A stretch of DNA of 64,000 nucleotides from Candidatus Lustribacter sp. Lineage in GTDB: Bacteria; Vulcanimicrobiota; Vulcanimicrobiia; Vulcanimicrobiales; Vulcanimicrobiaceae. The DNA lies in NCBI GenBank assembly GCA_965277805.1, contig OZ255842.1, positions 4,608,001 through 4,672,000 on the forward strand, read 5' to 3'. Below the pieces are notes generated by a model. The model was not told the origin of the DNA. It was given only the letters and a program-made list of their open reading frames with translations, and searched no databases. Both the position numbers and the translations under genes were made by a program. Positions 17,765-51,216 of the stretch are shown here, one piece after another (positions within the stretch are counted from its first letter, which is position 1; each line of letters opens with the position of its first letter).

Positions 17765-17780
17765 GGTGACTTCTATCACG
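17765..17780. promoter_or_regulatory. CRP-type box GGTGAC-TTCT-ATCACG; -10 TAGACT (minus, 17738-17743) for second hemC
   Basis: Palindrome centred 41.5 bp upstream of predicted TSS ~17731. Confidence 0.75.
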
Positions 17781-24134: not shown

Positions 24135-24150
24135 GGTGACGATAATCACG
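24135..24150. promoter_or_regulatory. CRP-type box GGTGAC-GATA-ATCACG; -10 TAGCGT (minus, 24108-24113); probable leaderless bchH promoter
   Basis: Centre 24142.5 is 41.5 bp from the bchH ATG (24101); -10 at -12..-7. Confidence 0.8.
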
Positions 24151-27989: not shown

Positions 27990-28005
27990 GGTGATAGCCG
28001 TCACC
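27990..28005. promoter_or_regulatory. CRP-type box GGTGAT-AGCC-GTCACC; -10 TACGCT (minus, 27962-27967) for bchM-acsF-bchD
   Basis: 16-mer identical to the 51201 box; centred ~42.5 bp upstream of predicted TSS. Confidence 0.8.
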
Positions 28006-31545: not shown

Positions 31546-31689
31546 GGGCGCTGCATGTACGCCTCCGCCCGTCGAGGACCTTCGGGCGTACCCAAGTCAC
31601 AGAACCGCCGTTCGTTCGGCGTTATCGTAAGCGTGGTGCTTGGGGTGAACATCGCCCGCGCCGGTCGTTGGAAGAGGGGGCCATACAGC

Positions 31690-32166
31690 ATGGGAGCATT
31701 TGCTACGGTGACGATGGCGGTCGATCTCACGCGGCGCCACAACGCCGCAGAAGCAGTGCAGTCGATCGTCGCGGGCTTTCCCGGCACGCGCAGCGTAGCG
31801 CTCGACGAGACCGCCGGTACGGTTACCTTCGATCTGCACTTTCCGGGAAACCTCAGCGGTTTGGTCCGCCGGCTATTCGACGGTTTGATCCCGGTGGGCG
31901 AGCAAGCACGAGTGTCGTTGCCGGTACAGAGCCTAGCGCCCGAGCTGATCGCCGGCGGTCCGGATATCGTCGCCGCGCGCGTCGTCGAAGGCGCGCACGT
32001 GTGGGACGTGGCGTTTGCCCGGGGCATGTACGTCGAGTCGGCCCGGCTCGATGGCGGACGCCTCGAAGCATCGATCGTCCCGCATTCGAACGCGATGCAC
32101 CAGATCTACGATTCGCTGCTAACGCTCGGTCTCGTCGTCAACGATCCGGCGGGGTCGCTCGTCTGA
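31690..32166 (+). CDS. Hypothetical protein upstream of crtB
   Basis: ATG 31690 after GAGGGGG; stop overlaps the crtB start. Confidence 0.65.
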   Translation: MGAFATVTMAVDLTRRHNAAEAVQSIVAGFPGTRSVALDETAGTVTFDLHFPGNLSGLVRRLFDGLIPVGEQARVSLPVQSLAPELIAGGPDIVAARVVEGAHVWDVAFARGMYVESARLDGGRLEASIVPHSNAMHQIYDSLLTLGLVVNDPAGSLV

Positions 32167-33054: not shown

Positions 33055-34131
33055 GTGTCCAGTCAGCTCGCCACCCTGTTGCGTAAGGGCGCCCCGGTCT
33101 ACCGCGATCTGTGGATCGCGCAGTCGCGCGAAGGCTTCGGCACCGAACCCAAAGCGGAAGTCGTGCACCAGCACCTCGGCTATTGGGATGCGATCGCTAA
33201 GGCCGTCGAGGACAACGAGTTCTCCGAGCTGATGAAGCTCTCGCGGGAAGCGGGGCAGTACCAGTTCTCGATGAGCATCGATCTCTCCGAAGCGGTGCGG
33301 CGCACCGTCGAAGCGACGAACATGATCGAGATTGCGCTGCTCGAGGTCAACGACGAGGCTCCCTCGATCGAGATCATCAGCGAGATTGCCGAACTGCGCT
33401 CGATGATCGTGATGGCGGTCGTCGCGGGCTACAATGGCGCCTTCAGCGCGATGGAGAAGCGCCCGACGGCAAGCGATCCGTTACGTGTGGCCCTGATGCG
33501 GTCGCCGAAGAAATACTCGGCGGTCAATCTAAAGACGCGCGACGAGATTGCCCCGCTCTACGATGAGGAGATGCGTTTTTACGCCGTCGAGAGCGGCAAG
33601 GTACGCCTGTACAACCTCTTGCCGAACGGCCGCGCGATCACGCTCTCGATCCTGAGCGAAGGCGACGTGTTCTTCCAATGGCGCACGCAAACCGGCAGCT
33701 TGTCGTGCATCTGCGCTGAGGCAATGGCGCCCTCGCGCGTCATCGGGGTTTCCGAGAAGGATCTGATCGAGCTGCTCGGAGCGCAGCCTGCGGCCGCCGT
33801 CGACGTGATCGGCAACTTCGCGCGCCGCCTGACCGAGAGCCAAGTGCTGATCGAAGATCTCATGAACAACAGCATCAACCTGCGCCTGTATCGCACGTTA
33901 CTCGAACTCGCACGCGAGTTCGGGCGCAAGCCGGCGGCCGCCAATTCCGTGATCATCGACATGCCGCTCACGCATCAGCGCCTGGCCGATATGATTGGGA
34001 GCAACCGGGTCACGGTCACGCGGAAGTTGCTCGAGCTGCAAAAGCGCGGCGTGATCGCCGCACGCGGCAGCGGCTCGATCGAGATCCTCGATCTAGATGC
34101 GTTGAACCGCTTGACCGTCCACGACGACTGA
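33055..34131 (+). CDS. Crp/Fnr-family regulator with ~140 aa extra N-terminal domain; NtcA-like recognition helix
   Basis: VESGKVRL cNMP-like barrel; PLTHQRLADMIGSNRVTVTRKL HTH. Confidence 0.9.
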   Translation: MSSQLATLLRKGAPVYRDLWIAQSREGFGTEPKAEVVHQHLGYWDAIAKAVEDNEFSELMKLSREAGQYQFSMSIDLSEAVRRTVEATNMIEIALLEVNDEAPSIEIISEIAELRSMIVMAVVAGYNGAFSAMEKRPTASDPLRVALMRSPKKYSAVNLKTRDEIAPLYDEEMRFYAVESGKVRLYNLLPNGRAITLSILSEGDVFFQWRTQTGSLSCICAEAMAPSRVIGVSEKDLIELLGAQPAAAVDVIGNFARRLTESQVLIEDLMNNSINLRLYRTLLELAREFGRKPAAANSVIIDMPLTHQRLADMIGSNRVTVTRKLLELQKRGVIAARGSGSIEILDLDALNRLTVHDD

Positions 34132-34758
34132 GGCCCGCGGCACCATTGTCGCGACGCGCGCGGCGGGCACCGGCGGATTGCGGAGCGTGGGTTCGGTGCC
34201 TTCGCTCAGGCGCGCATAGCTATTGCGGAAGCGGCTCGCGACGAGCAGCAGCATCGCGACGCCCGCGAACGCGGCCGGGGCACCCGCAAAGAACCAGAGC
34301 GAAACGACCGTGATCGCTGCCGCCGTGAGCGAACCCGCGACGGCGTAGTTGCTGCCGGCCGCGACCGTAACCCAAACCCCGAAATAGACGATCGCGGCCG
34401 GCCAGCACACGCCGATCAGCGCGCCGAACTCGGCCGCAACGCCGGTGCCGCCGTCGAAGCGGCGCCACGGACAGTAGGTGTGTCCGGCTACCACGGCAAC
34501 GGCGGCGAGCAAGCCGACGTCGAGGCCGCCACCGTGGGTGGCGATCGCAACCGGGATTGCGGCCTTGACGGTGTTCATGGCCGGCGCGAGGGCGACCGCG
34601 GTACGGGCGATCCGCGCGTCCAAACCGGCGAAGAGCCAATGCATGATCGGCGTGACCGGGATCGAGCCCATCAGCACGGCAAAAACGACGGCGGCCAGCT
34701 CCCGGATGTAGAGATTGCCGTAGAACCAATTATGGAGCAGGGCCTCGTTGACGACCAT
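34093..34758 (-). CDS. plsY: Glycerol-3-phosphate acyltransferase PlsY-like
   Basis: LMGSIP, VVAGHTYCPW..FDGGTGVA; motif 1 (GSGNxGATN) appears missing. Confidence 0.7.
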   Translation of the reverse strand: MVVNEALLHNWFYGNLYIRELAAVVFAVLMGSIPVTPIMHWLFAGLDARIARTAVALAPAMNTVKAAIPVAIATHGGGLDVGLLAAVAVVAGHTYCPWRRFDGGTGVAAEFGALIGVCWPAAIVYFGVWVTVAAGSNYAVAGSLTAAAITVVSLWFFAGAPAAFAGVAMLLLVASRFRNSYARLSEGTEPTLRNPPVPAARVATMVPRASVVVDGQAVQRI

Positions 34759-34780: not shown

Positions 34781-34796
34781 TGTGCCGACCGCTACA
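34781..34796. promoter_or_regulatory. Degenerate NtcA-type box TGTGCC-GACC-GCTACA; -10 TAGTAT 34819-34824
   Basis: Right half identical to the 35866 box; same ~-42.5 geometry. Confidence 0.55.
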
Positions 34797-34891
34797 ACGT
34801 GCGTGATGCATCGGGCGTTAGTATCATTTCACCACTCGAATGCCGTCCCTACTTTTTCGGGACTCATTGTGTGCTGGAGGAGAAAGCGTAC

Positions 34892-35086
34892 ATGCAAGCG
34901 ATTCGTCGCACCTTGCTGGCCCTCGCAGCAGTCGTGGCCGGCACGGCGCCTGCGGCTGCCCAAACGGCTGCAGCCACGACCGATACCGGACCAAGTCTGT
35001 TGTGGGTTTGGGTCTGGATTCTCGTCGCGGGCATCATCATCATGATCGTCGGCACCAGCCTCGGCGTCAACTCGAACCGCCGTTAA
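34892..35086 (+). CDS. Small protein: signal peptide + single TM helix (64 aa)
   Basis: GGAGGAG RBS; MQAIRRTLLALAAVVAGTAPAAAQ...LLWVWVWILVAGIIIMIVG. Confidence 0.75.
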   Translation: MQAIRRTLLALAAVVAGTAPAAAQTAAATTDTGPSLLWVWVWILVAGIIIMIVGTSLGVNSNRR

Positions 35087-35089
35087 CCG

Positions 35090-35176
35090 GTGTTCTGGAT
35101 TGTCATGGTGATCTTCGTGGCGGGAATTCTCGTCGCTCCGGTCATCGCGATACTCGCCGGCCGCCGAACGGGATAA
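35090..35176 (+). CDS. 28-aa single-TM peptide MFWIVMVIFVAGILVAPVIAILAGRRTG
   Basis: GTG 3 nt after the upstream stop; GC-rich third positions; TM followed by basic tail; below ORF-track cutoff. Confidence 0.55.
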   Translation: MFWIVMVIFVAGILVAPVIAILAGRRTG

Positions 35177-35200
35177 GTCGCTAAACGGACGGACCGGGCG

Positions 35201-35911
35201 ATGATGACCGTGCTCCACGTGTTCTTCGGGACGCTGGCACTCATCGTCGCGCCGGTAGCGTTCTGCGTGCGCAAGGGCGGCGCTTGGCATCGCCGGCTGG
35301 GCTTCGCGTTCATACTGGCCATGGCGATCGTGCTCTTCAGTGCCGGGTTTCTGTGGCAAGCCAAAGGTCATATTTTTCTGTTGCCGCTGGCCGCCGTCAG
35401 CGGCTATTTGATCTTCAACGGGTACCGCGCGGTCGTGCGGCATCGGCGGCCCGTTGCCGACCCATTTGAAGATCGCGTCGACATGCTCGCCGCCGGCATC
35501 GCGTTGCTGGCGGCGTCCGGCATCGTCTACCTGGCGGCGACCGCAGCCGGCCCGTTGATGCTGAGCATCCGCCCGGCGCTCGTGGGCATCGGCGCGATCG
35601 CCGTCGCCTTTGCGTCCAACGAGGTGCTGGGATTCTTCGGCCCGCGCATGCGGCTCGGTTGGCTCCTTTCACATTTTGCCGGCATGATTGCCGCCTACAT
35701 CTCCGCCGTCACCGCGTTCGCCGTGATCAACGCGCACGACGTCCCGATGATGGTGCGCTGGATCGTGCCGAGCACGATCGGCGCCTCCCTGATCGTGGGC
35801 CTCACGCTGCGTTACCTCCGGCGCGAGCGGCCGGTGGGGGTGGCCGGATCGAATTGCGGCGAGCCGGTAGCAACGGCTACAGCGCCCGGTCACCGTTTCG
35901 TACTACATTAG
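35201..35911 (+). CDS. Polytopic membrane protein (DUF2306-like)
   Basis: LHVFFG...RKGGAWHRRLG, WLLSHFAGMIAAYISAVTAF. Confidence 0.7.
   Translation: MMTVLHVFFGTLALIVAPVAFCVRKGGAWHRRLGFAFILAMAIVLFSAGFLWQAKGHIFLLPLAAVSGYLIFNGYRAVVRHRRPVADPFEDRVDMLAAGIALLAASGIVYLAATAAGPLMLSIRPALVGIGAIAVAFASNEVLGFFGPRMRLGWLLSHFAGMIAAYISAVTAFAVINAHDVPMMVRWIVPSTIGASLIVGLTLRYLRRERPVGVAGSNCGEPVATATAPGHRFVLH
35866..35881. promoter_or_regulatory. NtcA-type box GGTAGC-AACG-GCTACA (GTA-N8-TAC); -10 TACATT 35904-35909; puf promoter
   Basis: GTAGC/GCTAC palindrome centred ~42.5 bp upstream of predicted TSS ~35916. Confidence 0.75.
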
Positions 35912-35965
35912 CCGCACGTCGTTGCTAGAGGGCCGGTCGCCGGCTCTCAGGAGGGCACACTTTCC

Positions 35966-36139
35966 ATGACTCAAGCGGTGGTACTGGAGGTCGGGAACGA
36001 CCGCGTTCCCGACGTGTATCGCGACTTTTTCAACAACGCCGACTGGACGCTGCACAAGTTCGTCGTCGCAGGCTCCTGGTCGTTTTTCATCGTCGCAGTC
36101 GTCGCCCACATTTTCGTGTGGCTGTGGCGGCCGTGGTAG
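35966..36139 (+). CDS. pufB: Light-harvesting antenna beta subunit (57 aa)
   Basis: MTQAVVLEVGNDRVPDVYRDFFNNADWTLHKFVVAGSWSFFIVAVVAHIFVWLWRPW; AH..W.WRPW motif; AGGAGG RBS; absent from ORF track. Confidence 0.95.
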   Translation: MTQAVVLEVGNDRVPDVYRDFFNNADWTLHKFVVAGSWSFFIVAVVAHIFVWLWRPW

Positions 36140-36157
36140 GGAGTTGAGAAAAGCAGC

Positions 36158-36340
36158 ATGACCGTTCGTACAGGCTACAATTTCCGCGCGGTTCTCGGCG
36201 CCTACATCCTCGCCGGCGTCGTCGTCGCGTTCCTCATCCACTTCATCGTCCTCAGCTCGCCGCGCTACAACTGGATCTTTCCGGTAAACAGCACGACGAT
36301 GACGACGACGACCGTCAATCCAGCACCTGGGGCTAAATAG
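36158..36340 (+). CDS. pufA: Light-harvesting antenna alpha subunit
   Basis: AFLIHFIVLSSPRYNW motif. Confidence 0.95.
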   Translation: MTVRTGYNFRAVLGAYILAGVVVAFLIHFIVLSSPRYNWIFPVNSTTMTTTTVNPAPGAK

Positions 36341-36352
36341 GAGCGGAGCGCC

Positions 36353-37171
36353 GTGGCTGATCTCGAGTTTCTCGAGTTTGAGAGCGCCTATCGCAAGCCC
36401 GGCAACACGCTCTTCTCGTTGATCCTGGGCGACGACCCGTTCGATTTCTGGGTCGGCCGCTATTACGTCGGGTTCTTCGGAGTGATCGCGCTGGTCGCGA
36501 TCGCGATGGGGGTAACGATCCTCTTCGTCGCCGTCGGTCAGTACGGGGATTGGGATTTGTTACGTGCGGTGGTACCTTCACCGGACCGGTCGGTCGGTCT
36601 CGGCTGGGCGCCGTTCCTCCATGGCGGTGCGTGGCAAGCCGTGATCATCCTGGCGACGGTGTCGTTCGTCGCGTGGGGACTGCGCGAGGTCGATATCTGC
36701 CGCAAGCTTCAGATGGGCTTCCATATCCCGGCGATGTTCAGCTTGGCGATCTCCGCCTGGGTGGTGCTGCAGATCCTGCGGCCCCTGCTCATGGGCTGCT
36801 GGTGCGAGGGCTTCGATCTCGGCTTCACCGGTCACCTGACGTGGGTTTCCAACACCGGTTTCAAGTACCTGAATTTTTACGACAACCCGTTCCACGCATA
36901 CGCCGTCCTGGGGTTCTTCCTTACGGCGATGGTGCTCGCGATGCACGGCTCAGCGATTCTCGGCACGTACAACACCGATAAAGACCCCAACGTCGAAATG
37001 CGGCGCGAAGACTCGTTCTGGCGCGACTACGTCGGGTACTCGATCGGCGAGTACGGCATCCACCGCCTAGGCTTCTATCTCGCCGTCTACACGCTCGTCA
37101 TGTCGGATCTGTGCATCCTGACGAGCGGGACGCTGGTACAAGACTGGGTCGACTTTTGGCATCCATTCTGA
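36353..37171 (+). CDS. pufL: Type II reaction centre L subunit
   Basis: DPFDFWVGRYYVGFFG, REVDICRKL, GHLTWVSN, NPFH, AMHG, GYSIGEYGIHRLG. Confidence 0.98.
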   Translation: MADLEFLEFESAYRKPGNTLFSLILGDDPFDFWVGRYYVGFFGVIALVAIAMGVTILFVAVGQYGDWDLLRAVVPSPDRSVGLGWAPFLHGGAWQAVIILATVSFVAWGLREVDICRKLQMGFHIPAMFSLAISAWVVLQILRPLLMGCWCEGFDLGFTGHLTWVSNTGFKYLNFYDNPFHAYAVLGFFLTAMVLAMHGSAILGTYNTDKDPNVEMRREDSFWRDYVGYSIGEYGIHRLGFYLAVYTLVMSDLCILTSGTLVQDWVDFWHPF

Positions 37172-38178
37172 TGGCAACGATTCTTCCGCGCCCGATCGAG
37201 CCGCTCGAAGAGGCCGAACCCAGTTCGTTTGATCACGCGGATCCGCTCGGTATTCGCGCCGGCACGCCGACGCGCATCGATCGCTTACGACACATGATGG
37301 TCGATACGCAGGTCGGGACGATCTGGCTCGGTACCTGGGGCGTCTTTTCCGCGATGCTCTTCCTGGCCGGCACCGGCGTGGTCTTTCTGGCGGCGATGGA
37401 CCAAGTCGGCGGCAGTCCGTGGCTGGTGGTCAAGTACTTCGCGAACCTGAACCTCGCGCCGCCCGACGGGTTGGGTTTGGCCCACTCGCTTCGCAACGGC
37501 GGCTACTGGCAGATCACGCTTACATTATGGGCCGGCTCGACGATCTTTTGGGCGGCCCGCTGCTTCGAACGGCTCGCGCGTCACAAGTGGCGCCCGTTCT
37601 TGCTGTTCGCGTGGCTCTCGGCGATTTTTTTGACCGCGTGCATCTGGGTGTTCCATCCGCTGATCGTCGGCTCGTGGGCCGATGCGCCGGCGCTCGGCCT
37701 GAACTCCGATTTGCAATGGGCGCAGAACTTCAGCGTGCTGTGGGGTAACCTGTACTACAACCCCTTCCATCAGCTCGCGATTTTCTTCTTACTCGGCAGT
37801 ACGATGCTCTGGGGGATGCACGGCGCAACGATCCTCGCGACCGGCAGCGAGAGCAGCCATCACGAGGATGCCGAGATCAAGAACATGAGCTCGGGCTCCC
37901 AGAAAGCCGCGCTGTTCTGGAAATGGACCATGGGCTTCAACGCCTTTCCGAAGTCGATCCACGACTATCTGTGGTGGTTTGCGGTGGGAACGGTGTTGGC
38001 TTCGGGTATCGGCATCCTTACCACCGGCGTTATAACGCGGGACTGGTACGTTTGGGGCGTCGATCACGGTACCGTTTCGCAGTACGGTCCGATAACACGT
38101 GAGGCGATCAACGAGTATCCTCGGCCGATGCCTCCCATGCCGGCTCCGGGCGGCTACATGCCGGCTCCGGCCAGATAA
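37171..38178 (+). CDS. pufM: Type II reaction centre M subunit
   Basis: QVGTIWLG, GGYWQ, GNLYYNPFH, MHGATILA, ALFWKWTMGFNA, SIH; ATG overlaps pufL TGA. Confidence 0.98.
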   Translation: MATILPRPIEPLEEAEPSSFDHADPLGIRAGTPTRIDRLRHMMVDTQVGTIWLGTWGVFSAMLFLAGTGVVFLAAMDQVGGSPWLVVKYFANLNLAPPDGLGLAHSLRNGGYWQITLTLWAGSTIFWAARCFERLARHKWRPFLLFAWLSAIFLTACIWVFHPLIVGSWADAPALGLNSDLQWAQNFSVLWGNLYYNPFHQLAIFFLLGSTMLWGMHGATILATGSESSHHEDAEIKNMSSGSQKAALFWKWTMGFNAFPKSIHDYLWWFAVGTVLASGIGILTTGVITRDWYVWGVDHGTVSQYGPITREAINEYPRPMPPMPAPGGYMPAPAR

Positions 38179-38190
38179 GGCGCAACAGCG

Positions 38191-39102
38191 ATGCGGCGGA
38201 CTTGGCTTGGCGTTTTCACGATCGTGTTCGGTCTCACGTTCGGCGGCCTGATACAGCCGCTCGTCGAACGCACCCATGCCGCGACGATCGTTACCGGCGA
38301 AGACAACGGTGGAACGATCGGGACGGGCGTGGAGACTCCGCCGCACGCGCCGCGTTACGGTCCCGTGGATCAGAAGGCGCCGTTGGACTTCAAGACGCAG
38401 CCGGCGGGCGTTCCGCACGCCTATGCCGCCGGTCGCCTATACAACGTGCAAGTCCTCAAAGGCGGCTATGGCGACGTCGTCGCGCAGATGACGGATTACA
38501 CGCAAGCGCTGGGGGTCGGCTGCGAGTACTGCCACAACACGAGCAATTTTGCGTACGACACGCCGACGAAGCAAATCGCGCGCACGATGATCAAGATGGT
38601 CGGAAGCATTCAGACCGACTGGGTCGGGCCCGTTCATAAGGATTTTCCCAACTTTGCCGTCACCGGCGCCGTCGGGTGCATCACGTGTCATCGCGGTTCG
38701 CCGCTGCACCCGGTGGCCTACAACATCGTGCCCGTCCAGTATCTGGACTGGCCGGCGAAATCCAGCCGTCAGGCCGGCTTCGTCGTCAACTCGATGTACT
38801 CGGTGTCAAAATCGCTGGGCGTGAACTGCCTGTTCTGCCACAACTCGGCCGACTTCGTGACGCTCCAGTCGTATCCGACCAATCGGATCGCTCACCGGAT
38901 GTGGCAAATGGTCGACACGATCAATCACAAATATTTGCCCCCGAACATTGAAGCCGTTACGTGCTACACGTGCCATCACGGCGCAAAGTGGCCGACCGAA
39001 CTTGTTGCCGGAGGAGAAGATCAGTCTCCGGCAAAAGCGCGAGCCCTGCGCCCCGAAGTCCACCTCAATCCGGGAGCGCACACGGCCTCGGGAGTTCAGT
39101 GA
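38191..39102 (+). CDS. pufC: RC-bound tetrahaem cytochrome c
   Basis: Four CxxCH (CEYCH, CITCH, CLFCH, CYTCH); YNVQVL, ALGVGC, IARTMIKMV. Confidence 0.95.
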   Translation: MRRTWLGVFTIVFGLTFGGLIQPLVERTHAATIVTGEDNGGTIGTGVETPPHAPRYGPVDQKAPLDFKTQPAGVPHAYAAGRLYNVQVLKGGYGDVVAQMTDYTQALGVGCEYCHNTSNFAYDTPTKQIARTMIKMVGSIQTDWVGPVHKDFPNFAVTGAVGCITCHRGSPLHPVAYNIVPVQYLDWPAKSSRQAGFVVNSMYSVSKSLGVNCLFCHNSADFVTLQSYPTNRIAHRMWQMVDTINHKYLPPNIEAVTCYTCHHGAKWPTELVAGGEDQSPAKARALRPEVHLNPGAHTASGVQ

Positions 39103-39779
39103 TGGATTTCTTTTGGAGTCTGCCTAAAGCCAGCATCGCCGGTCTAAACGATCCGCTCAACGAGCTTTTTGCGACCGTCCAGCCGCGCCGATACGACGAG
39201 CGAACGATCATCAGCGATCCCGACAACGGACCGGAGCGCGCGTTCCTATGTACGAGCGGAACGCTGAAGGTTACGAAGCTGCTCTCCAACGGGCGCGAGA
39301 TCCTAATCACGATCCTCGAATCGGGTTCGATTTGGAGCGATCGTTCCTTGCTCAAGGGCTATTGGCGCGAGGTCTACATCGAGACGATGTCGGCCGTGAA
39401 TATGGTCTCGATCGAAAAAGAGGCGTTCGAACGGTACGTCTGTAGCGACTCGGAGCGCCTGACGCAGTTCATGATGCGGATCTCGGAACAGATGAGCGAT
39501 GCGCTCACGCTGCTCGAGGATTTCCGCGGGCGTGACGTCGCCTCGCGCCTAGCTTCCGTGCTCGTGCGCTTTTCCAAACAGTACGGCGTAGAGAAAGAAA
39601 GTTCGGTCGTCATCGACCTGCCGTTTACGCATCAAGACCTCGCCAACATGATCGGCACGGCTCGCGAAACCGTCAGCCGCAACATGGCCCGCTTCCGCGC
39701 CGAGGGCTACCTCCGGGGCGGCCAGATGGCTACTCTCGAGATCCTCAACCTCAATTCGCTCGAGGCCCTCATCGTCTAG
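39102..39779 (+). CDS. Crp/Fnr-family regulator, CRP-like recognition helix, translationally coupled to pufC
   Basis: SGTLKV..NGREI; PFTHQDLANMIGTARETVSR; TGATG overlap with pufC. Confidence 0.92.
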   Translation: MDFFWSLPKASIAGLNDPLNELFATVQPRRYDERTIISDPDNGPERAFLCTSGTLKVTKLLSNGREILITILESGSIWSDRSLLKGYWREVYIETMSAVNMVSIEKEAFERYVCSDSERLTQFMMRISEQMSDALTLLEDFRGRDVASRLASVLVRFSKQYGVEKESSVVIDLPFTHQDLANMIGTARETVSRNMARFRAEGYLRGGQMATLEILNLNSLEALIV

Positions 39780-39781
39780 AC

Positions 39782-39839
39782 GTCACCCCGGGGAGCAAAA
39801 CGGTACTCTCCCTCCCGCCGCCTGGCTCCTCGGGGTGAT
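39782..39839 (+). other. Stem-loop (GTCACCCCGGGGAGC / GCTCCTCGGGGTGAT) after the puf operon
   Basis: 15-bp inverted repeat with G-U pairs; no U-tract. Confidence 0.55.
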
Positions 39840-39849
39840 GGCTATCACC
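39834..39849. promoter_or_regulatory. CRP-type box GGTGAT-GGCT-ATCACC; -10 TACGAT 39871-39876 for bchFCXYZ
   Basis: Perfect 6-bp arms; centre 41.5 bp upstream of predicted TSS 39883; GGAGG RBS follows. Confidence 0.85.
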
Positions 39850-51200: not shown

Positions 51201-51216
51201 GGTGATAGCCGTCACC
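51201..51216. promoter_or_regulatory. CRP-type box GGTGAT-AGCC-GTCACC between divergent bchL and hemE
   Basis: -10 TAACGT (minus, 51174-51179) and TAGGGT (plus, 51239-51244) both at class II spacing. Confidence 0.85.

Follow-up and report, generated by a model that had tools for sequence, protein, structure and literature searches.

The question raised by the photosynthesis gene cluster of Candidatus Lustribacter sp. is how transcription of its puf operon, encoding light-harvesting 1 and reaction-centre proteins, is switched on. Little is known of how photosynthesis genes are controlled beyond the Proteobacteria and cyanobacteria. The cluster fills the 64,000-nucleotide (nt) stretch of contig OZ255842.1 analysed here (positions 4,608,001 to 4,672,000, referred to as the window and numbered from its first letter), and the genome is a single contig of 5.53 Mb that is 95 % complete. 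Two genes for Crp-family regulators, called reg1 and reg2, lie on either side of the operon, and a palindrome named the puf box precedes pufB (Table 1). The comparisons described below make it rather likely that this palindrome (35866-35881) is the site of a dimeric Crp-family activator at a class II-type puf promoter, with the reg1 product as the most likely binder.

Geometry of the puf box

The puf box is a perfect GTA-N8-TAC palindrome (N, any base), and a consensus scan for sigma-70-type -35/-10 pairs found none at this place. Like cyanobacterial NtcA promoters, the putative puf promoter combines the GTA-N8-TAC core with a TAN3T hexamer as -10 at a distance of 22-23 nt and has no -35 motif. 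NtcA-activated sites are centred near -41.5, which is the class II geometry, according to the accessible parts of PMC11850224 and PMC3898017. In the window the palindrome would be centred approximately 41.5-42.5 nt before a predicted start at about 35916, where it would replace the -35 motif and TAN3T would serve as the -10 hexamer. In a search of sequencing runs for this stretch, three RNA runs matched 5-12 % of its sequence words, and four runs of one sample (X4-X7) that contain all or part of it yielded low-depth contigs of unknown library type that carry no strand or start information. The first-pass annotation had placed two boxes and two -10 hexamers in this region, 22 nt apart in each case, and had likened both promoters to those activated by NtcA. 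All four elements were found at those positions, the spacing is correct for both boxes when the box is taken as a 16-mer, and the comparison with NtcA promoters holds for the puf box, which has the canonical GTA-N8-TAC core and TAN3T at the NtcA-promoter distance.

The motif counts did not stand out. The window contains 3 GTAN8TAC cores versus 1.70 expected, a number reached in 21 of 100 shuffles, and TGTN10ACA occurs twice versus 4.69 expected; neither is above chance. Across the genome 232 GTAN8TAC cores were counted. With such counts the sequence alone could not show that the boxes exceed chance, and the argument was built on relatives.

Conservation of the puf box among relatives

pufL was searched for in 401 genomes of the phylum and was present in 29, all of one family (6 of 61 related genomes in an earlier, smaller sample). 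These 29 genomes provided 30 puf loci, two of which (L082 and L084) end at contig edges before the promoter, leaving 28 assessable ones; genomes and loci are cited below by G and L numbers. The first-pass annotation had made its proposal depend on conservation of the palindrome, and a GTA-N8-TAC core was found approximately 98-130 nt before the pufB start in all 28 assessable loci (7 of 7 in the first sample), the box of L074 being recovered once two N in the record were allowed for. TAN3T follows at 22 or 23 nt past the box in 27 of the 28. As a background, 10 other GTA-N8-TAC cores were present in 110,052 bases of the same puf loci. In the 22 distinct versions of the box, GTA and CTAC are invariant and the A after CTAC is kept in 21; bases four and five are mostly G and C, and the central 4 nt and the flanks are variable. 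The consensus of the palindrome reads TGTAGC-N4-GCTACA. When a matrix was built from the boxes of relatives only, the puf box of the window ranked first of 11,066,528 genome positions, with 21.0 bits in comparison to 17.1 for the next best.

The box is kept though the identity of pufB drops to 46 % among the loci and the DNA around the box is unalignable, which argues for a constraint on the box itself. It is also retained at loci whose upstream gene is unrelated and stops well short of it. Judged by this comparison across the phototrophic clade sampled, the occurrence of the puf box far exceeds chance.

In the window the box lies inside an open reading frame (ORF; 35201-35911) of a membrane-protein gene, which reads through it as the codons P-V-A-T-A-T; the TAG stop occupies 35909-35911 and its first base is the last T of TACATT. 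This gene precedes pufB solely in the subclade of G307, G382, G290 and G311. The sole other homologue among 61 genomes, that of G031, is far from the cluster and its similarity stops near residue 207 of 236; past approximately this residue the tails encoded in L067, L069 and L070 vary in length and sequence. The ORF of L001, L067 and L069 contains the box; in L070 the box overlaps the stop, and in L068 it is intergenic, 292 nt beyond the ORF end. Since the tail is unconserved as a protein and the box is kept as DNA, the reading frame simply extends into the promoter, and the earlier description of the box as hidden in a gene tail was borne out. For annotation practice this means that the unconserved tail of an upstream gene can harbour a promoter. 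In G036 there was a single weak match to the membrane protein, on which nothing was built.

The reg1 product as the candidate binder

The best solved relatives of reg1 are NtcA chains (E values of 9e-17 to 1.3e-16), with residues 171-336 as the aligned region. The segment GSNRVTVTRK of reg1 aligns to GSTRVTVTRL of NtcA, and the recognition helix RVTVTR is identical in the two. This helix is unchanged in the reg1 orthologues aligned, save a V-to-I change in reg1_G021b (RVTITR), and is nearly invariant across 40 family members. NtcA reads its box through Arg186, Val187, Thr190 and Arg191; Val187, which is Glu in CRP, is the discriminator, and its replacement by Glu abolishes NtcA-box binding, as described in the accessible part of PMC11850224. 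reg1 carries this box-reading set (Arg, Val, Thr, Arg) and reg2, with the helix RETVSR, does not.

Six Crp-type proteins were detected in the genome by tblastn and only reg1 has RVTVTR. Of the 29 pufL genomes 27 have the reg1 type, as does one of the 372 without pufL (G024, 80 % complete), and the gene adjoins puf in G307, G382, G290 and G311, as in the window. The protein encoded from position 33055, which the first-pass annotation had proposed to assay on the boxes, is thus supported by the analysis as the putative binder, being the only Crp-type protein of the genome with the RVTVTR helix and travelling with pufL.

The sequence data support a puf promoter that works like an NtcA-activated one under a regulator from outside the NtcA family. 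Judged by sequence, reg1 is not an NtcA orthologue, and the term NtcA-type is used here for the site and the helix only. NtcA is the top-scoring NCBIfam family for reg1, yet reg1 reaches 67.3 bits on the NtcA model TIGR03697 versus a cut-off of 244.95. The length and domains of reg1 differ from the two-domain architecture of approximately 220 residues typical of NtcA; unlike NtcA it has about 135-150 extra N-terminal residues with a predicted globin-like fold. PipX (PF12058) was not found in the genome, the control Synechococcus elongatus being positive. The genome has one strong site only, which is at puf of an anoxygenic phototroph and not at nitrogen assimilation genes, and the half-sites of the puf box extend to GTAGC/GCTAC, which also sets it apart from NtcA sites.

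No Pfam family matches residues 1-160 of reg1. A model obtained from 40 sequences (predicted local distance difference test, pLDDT, 87.1) predicts a separate domain for residues 1-134, helical and globin-like. The top Foldseek matches 6m9a, 4uiq and 3pmd had probabilities of 0.99-1.00, template modelling (TM) scores of 0.46-0.58 and E values of 0.06-0.12, and the best rows overall were sensor globins and neuroglobins (E 0.06-0.7). All 50 matches listed by VIA-align were globin-fold or globin-like, the classes listed being globins, sensor globins, stressosome RsbR-type N-terminal domains and phycobiliproteins; the Z values of 8-11 to 40-odd globin-fold chains (cytoglobin 11.1, the AfGcHK sensor 10.3, stressosome 3zta 9.6, RsbR 8.2) are of a size that helical folds can also reach through their arrangement alone. 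The globin fold is a prediction with a moderate match. His40 is the only histidine among the conserved residues of this domain and is nearly invariant in the 40 sequences, as is a CxC motif in the effector domain. The signal could be sensed by the globin-like N-terminal domain, the effector domain or both.

The N-terminal 130 residues of reg1 are predicted to have the same fold as globin-coupled and non-haem sensor globins such as BpeGReg, AfGcHK, RsbR and pXO1-118; unlike these proteins, reg1 joins this domain to a Crp-type effector domain and a helix-turn-helix (HTH). The N-terminal domain is shared by 73 public proteins, for which the sources that assign a name use generic ones only. Where a domain is on record for these relatives it is a Crp-type HTH, and the few without one are mostly truncated fragments. 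No description of a globin-Crp fusion in a photosynthesis cluster, of the puf box or of either regulator was found in the literature searched, which did not cover subscription journals and supplements. The words 'Crp', 'promoter' and 'regulator' are absent from the main texts of PMC9758169 and PMC6664022, whose supplementary gene tables may list these regulators. The combination of a globin-like sensor domain with a Crp-type regulator is an architecture for which this literature provided no description.

A second regulator and a second type of box

The best solved relatives of reg2 are also NtcA chains and NtcA is its top NCBIfam family (71.3 bits versus the cut-off of 244.95); reg1 and reg2 are 24 % identical to each other. 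The helix RETVSR is unchanged among the reg2 orthologues aligned and keeps the Arg-Glu...Arg pattern of the CRP helix. Of the 401 genomes, precisely the 29 with pufL have the reg2 gene, mostly just after pufC and approximately 2.7 kb downstream of pufL, the order of pufC followed by the regulator being kept in most of the 29. In the window the pufC stop and the reg2 start overlap as TGATG (39100-39104), and reg2 is thus probably co-transcribed with puf and translated from the puf mRNA.

A second type of box, GTGA-N6-TCAC followed by TAN3T at 22-23 nt, was present in the cluster. Seven such composites (GTGA-N6-TCAC-N22/23-TAN3T) occur in the genome, 6 of them within the window, and the boxes at bchF, bchM, bchL/hemE, bchH and hemC all have the CRP-type GTGA...TCAC form. 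When a matrix was made from six GTGA sites of relatives, the bchL, bchM and bchF sites ranked 1, 2 and 3 in the genome; the bchF box is also conserved in G005, G031 and G011. The puf box (GTAG...CTAC) scores -7.4 bits under this GTG-type matrix and is not of the CRP-type form. The two types differ by G for A, a difference expected of a Glu versus a Val helix, and on this ground the GTGA boxes were provisionally assigned to reg2 and the GTA boxes to reg1. The analysis indicates that reg2 probably drives the bch and hem operons through the GTGA-N6-TCAC boxes.

The location of the reg2 gene in the puf operon suggests a cascade. Signal-responsive reg1 would recruit RNA polymerase to pufBALMC; puf activation would also raise the level of reg2, whose gene follows pufC, and the raised reg2 would turn on the bch and hem operons through their GTGA-N6-TCAC boxes. 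Such a two-tier arrangement, with a Val-helix reg1 acting on GTA boxes (puf and reg2) and a Glu-helix reg2 acting on GTGA boxes (bacteriochlorophyll and haem operons), is put forward tentatively, as a possibility rated clearly below an even chance.

Evidence against the proposed assignment and alternative explanations

Several observations weigh against the assignment of the puf box to reg1 and against a larger set of such promoters. The link between reg1, as the most likely binder, and the box is made by analogy with NtcA alone. The linkage of reg2 to puf (29 of 29 pufL genomes) is tighter than that of reg1, whose type was not found in the pufL genomes G284 (91 % complete) and G298 (92 % complete), and the pufL genomes are kin, so that per-genome counts of this kind are not independent events. 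The puf locus of G298 (L076) has the box though the reg1 type was not found there. In the 15 reg1-type and reg2-type genes examined, the 400 nt upstream contained no box, with one exception in G029, a GTA box without a -10. The L072 locus has two boxes with CATCAT at 23 nt and no TAN3T at the expected place. The complete GTAN8TAC-N22/23-TAN3T composites number 8 genome-wide versus about 5.3 expected; this lack of enrichment indicates that the regulon here may consist of one or two promoters. The region upstream of the 'MGAFAT' gene of the window (31546-31689; see below) contained no convincing box, which points to a regulon that varies between genomes.

The closer linkage of reg2 could mean that reg2 itself binds the GTA box in a positive autoregulation, reg1 acting elsewhere. 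The strict co-occurrence with pufL in 29 of 401 genomes, the position just after pufC with overlapping stop and start, and the NtcA chains as best solved relatives are in favour of this explanation. It is nevertheless unlikely, since the reg2 helix has Glu in place of the NtcA Val and that very exchange abolishes NtcA-box binding (accessible part of PMC11850224), the distinct GTGA-N6-TCAC boxes concentrated in the cluster suit the CRP-like R-E-x-x-x-R helix of reg2, and the puf box has a negative score under the GTGA-type matrix. Slightly less probable still is that the palindrome is the operator of a repressor or of another unlinked factor, puf being transcribed mainly by read-through from the small-ORF promoter upstream or from an unrecognised promoter. 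Occupation of the -35 region could block RNA polymerase as well, and only two terminator-like sites, both inside the membrane-protein gene, were found from the small ORF to pufB, so read-through is possible. However, in 27 of 28 loci TAN3T stands at the fixed distance of 22-23 nt that characterises class II activation, and the box persists at loci with an unrelated upstream gene that stops well short of it. A repressor of the PpsR type was considered and rejected: the half-sites of the puf box are separated by 10 nt, not 12, and the best score with PpsR/CrtJ (TIGR02040) in the genome was 29.2 bits versus a cut-off of 275.4. It is very improbable that the box is functionless and conserved merely through the close kinship of the loci. 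All 29 pufL genomes do come from one family and some boxes are identical between congeners (L076/L077 and L080/L081), but the divergence of pufB, the unalignable surroundings, the change of the neighbouring gene between lineages and the constancy of GTA, CTAC and, in 21 of 22 versions, the next A while the centre and flanks vary all speak for selection on the box. Activation through a Crp-family dimer, with reg1 as the most likely binder, is therefore preferred.

Comparison with known regulators of photosynthesis genes

PpsR/CrtJ represses the puf, bch and crt promoters in Proteobacteria through TGT-N12-ACA. The boxes in the window resemble these operators in being TGT...ACA palindromes at photosynthesis promoters, and differ from them in the spacing (TGT/GGT-N10-ACA) and in the activator geometry. 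FnrL has an Fe-S sensor and recognizes a TTGAT-type box; neither the puf box nor the second box described below has this FNR/FixK-type form, and no search aimed at TTGAT boxes was made. In Rhodobacter sphaeroides the Crp/Fnr-family proteins FnrL and CrpK control photosynthesis operons directly, according to the accessible part of PMC4263372. They are global regulators encoded outside the cluster, in contrast to the two dedicated regulators in or near the cluster and their GTA and GTGA boxes proposed here.

The putative puf promoter shares with CRP class II promoters (TGTGA-N6-TCACA) a dimeric Crp-family protein and a palindrome overlapping the -35 position, and CRP-form sites (GTGA-N6-TCAC, 22-23 nt, TAN3T) are present in the cluster. 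Unlike CRP sites, the puf box has A where CRP has G, and unlike CRP, both regulators are confined to phototrophic genomes (reg1 save 1 of 372). If these assignments are correct, the NtcA mode of DNA reading reaches beyond cyanobacterial nitrogen control, one signal would order both apoprotein and pigment supply, and the two regulons would be separated by one A/G base pair in each half-site. The cascade would then be the system that controls photosynthesis in a phylum without PpsR. The analysis names a testable circuit down to the exact bases and residues: a conserved site, a candidate binder with a known reading code and a site type for the pigment operons.

The second box and the small membrane proteins

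The second box precedes a small ORF located between the PlsY-like gene and the membrane-protein gene. The order reg1, PlsY-like gene, small ORF, membrane protein and pufB is common to the closest relatives, and the small ORF is 53-79 % identical in G307, G382 and G290. The earlier claim that this box shares the GCTACA half-site with the puf box was correct, and the promoter is kept in G307 and G382; the likeness to NtcA boxes is weaker, the second box being a GTG/TAC hybrid with low scores (5.6 bits and rank 1029 of 11,066,528 under the GTA matrix, -0.4 bits under the GTG-type matrix). The chances are about even that it is a weak site of the same kind. It would then serve the unit of the small ORF and the membrane protein, and its transcripts may read through into puf.

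An alternative, rated somewhat below an even chance, is that the second box resembles such sites by accident and that this control does not extend to the small-ORF promoter. Besides the poor scores, this explanation draws on the 8 genome-wide GTGN8TAC-N22/23-TAN3T composites, only one of them in the window, and on the relatives G290, which has the small ORF without a box upstream (a GTA-N8-CAC precedes the tiny ORF there, yet not the small one), and G311, which has a half-site only. On the other side, G307 retained TGTGCCG..CGCTACA and TAGTAT before the small ORF while the 20-nt spacer diverged, and G382 has a perfect GTA-N8-TAC 23 nt before TATACT at the same place ahead of the same small ORF. 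Several sites in relatives, located before orthologous genes, combine a degenerate distal half with a perfect proximal GCTACA, as the second box does. Strong GTA boxes are also located upstream of similar small membrane proteins in G011 and G021, to whose 'PGPPxWFWIL' small proteins the small ORF aligns loosely, and in relatives such boxes further precede a 39-residue peptide, a protein of approximately 150 residues and, in two genomes, bchF.

The G011 and G021 segments (L016-L023) contain tandem pairs of 84-94-residue proteins with a common 'YYYGGYPGPPxWFWIL' and a 39-residue peptide ending in 'IPWPWIDPEDA', all with strong GTA boxes upstream; these products could be antenna or reaction-centre accessory subunits not yet known. 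The protein of about 150 residues starts with MGAFAT or MAVFAE, has no Pfam or NCBIfam match and is encoded at 31690-32166 in the window. This 'MGAFAT' gene is conserved in the clusters of G005, G031, G011 and G021 (L008-L023), with a GTA-type box upstream. A box match with 3 mismatches at 31692 of the window was rejected, as it falls at the start of the 'MGAFAT' coding sequence.

Other features of the locus

The coordinates are collected in Table 1. In the gene order of the window, bchF, bchC, bchX, bchY and bchZ come after reg2.

Table 1. Coordinates of the genes, boxes and predicted promoter elements in the window
Feature	Position	Strand	Remarks
GTGA-N6-TCAC box before hemC	17766..17779	-	
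GTGA-N6-TCAC box before bchH-hemA	24136..24149	-	
GTGA-N6-TCAC box before bchM-acsF-bchD/I	27991..28004	-	
crtB	ends 33053		upstream neighbour of the reg1 gene
reg1, Crp-family regulator, 358 aa	33055..34131	+	predicted globin-like N-terminal domain, effector domain, HTH with RVTVTR helix
PlsY-like gene	34093-34758	-	between reg1 and the small ORF
Second box TGTGCCGACCGCTACA	34781..34796	+	GTG half distal, TAC half proximal; weak GTG-N8-TAC hybrid, one mismatch
Predicted -10 TAGTAT of the small-ORF promoter	34819..34824	+	22 nt past the 16-mer; kept in G307
Small ORF, 64 aa	34892..35086	+	signal-like N-terminus, one membrane helix; conserved in the subclade
Tiny ORF, 28 aa	35090..35176	+	one hydrophobic helix; 3 nt past the small-ORF stop; no family-library match
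Membrane protein, weak DUF2306 match	35201..35911	+	unconserved C-terminal tail spans the puf box and -10
Putative puf activator box GGTAGCAACGGCTACA	35866..35881	+	core GTA-N8-TAC at 35867-35880, within the tail of ORF 35201-35911
Predicted -10 TACATT (TAN3T)	35904..35909	+	23 nt past the core, 22 nt past the 16-mer; putative function
Predicted puf leader	35914..35965	+	predicted start ~35916; 9-bp hairpin, -24 kcal/mol, z -2.94
pufB, pufA, pufL, pufM, pufC (light-harvesting 1, reaction centre)	35966..39102	+	Pfam LHC, Photo_RC, CytoC_RC
reg2, second Crp-family regulator	39102..39779	+	helix RETVSR; start overlaps the pufC stop
GTGA-N6-TCAC box before bchF-bchC-bchXYZ	39835..39848	+	22 nt, then TACGAT
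GTGA-N6-TCAC box between divergent bchL (-) and hemE (+)	51202..51215	.	TAN3T at 22/23 nt on both sides

At least two copies of the puf operon are present in G011 (L005 and L007), G168, G177 and G171, each copy with its own box, and the same four genomes carry additional Val-helix regulator paralogues. All 8 genome-wide GTAN8TAC-N22/23-TAN3T composites are on the + strand, an unexplained bias that may be due to chance.

Judged by eye, G307, G382 and G290 have frames resembling the tiny ORF, and G311 has a less similar one; the tiny ORF may encode a membrane peptide of the photosynthetic apparatus that annotation has missed. The 9-base-pair (bp) leader hairpin at 35928-35948 is GC-rich and is followed by a second stem over the ribosome-binding site. 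L003, L005 and L006 have, as far as can be judged by eye, GC-rich inverted repeats at a comparable position.

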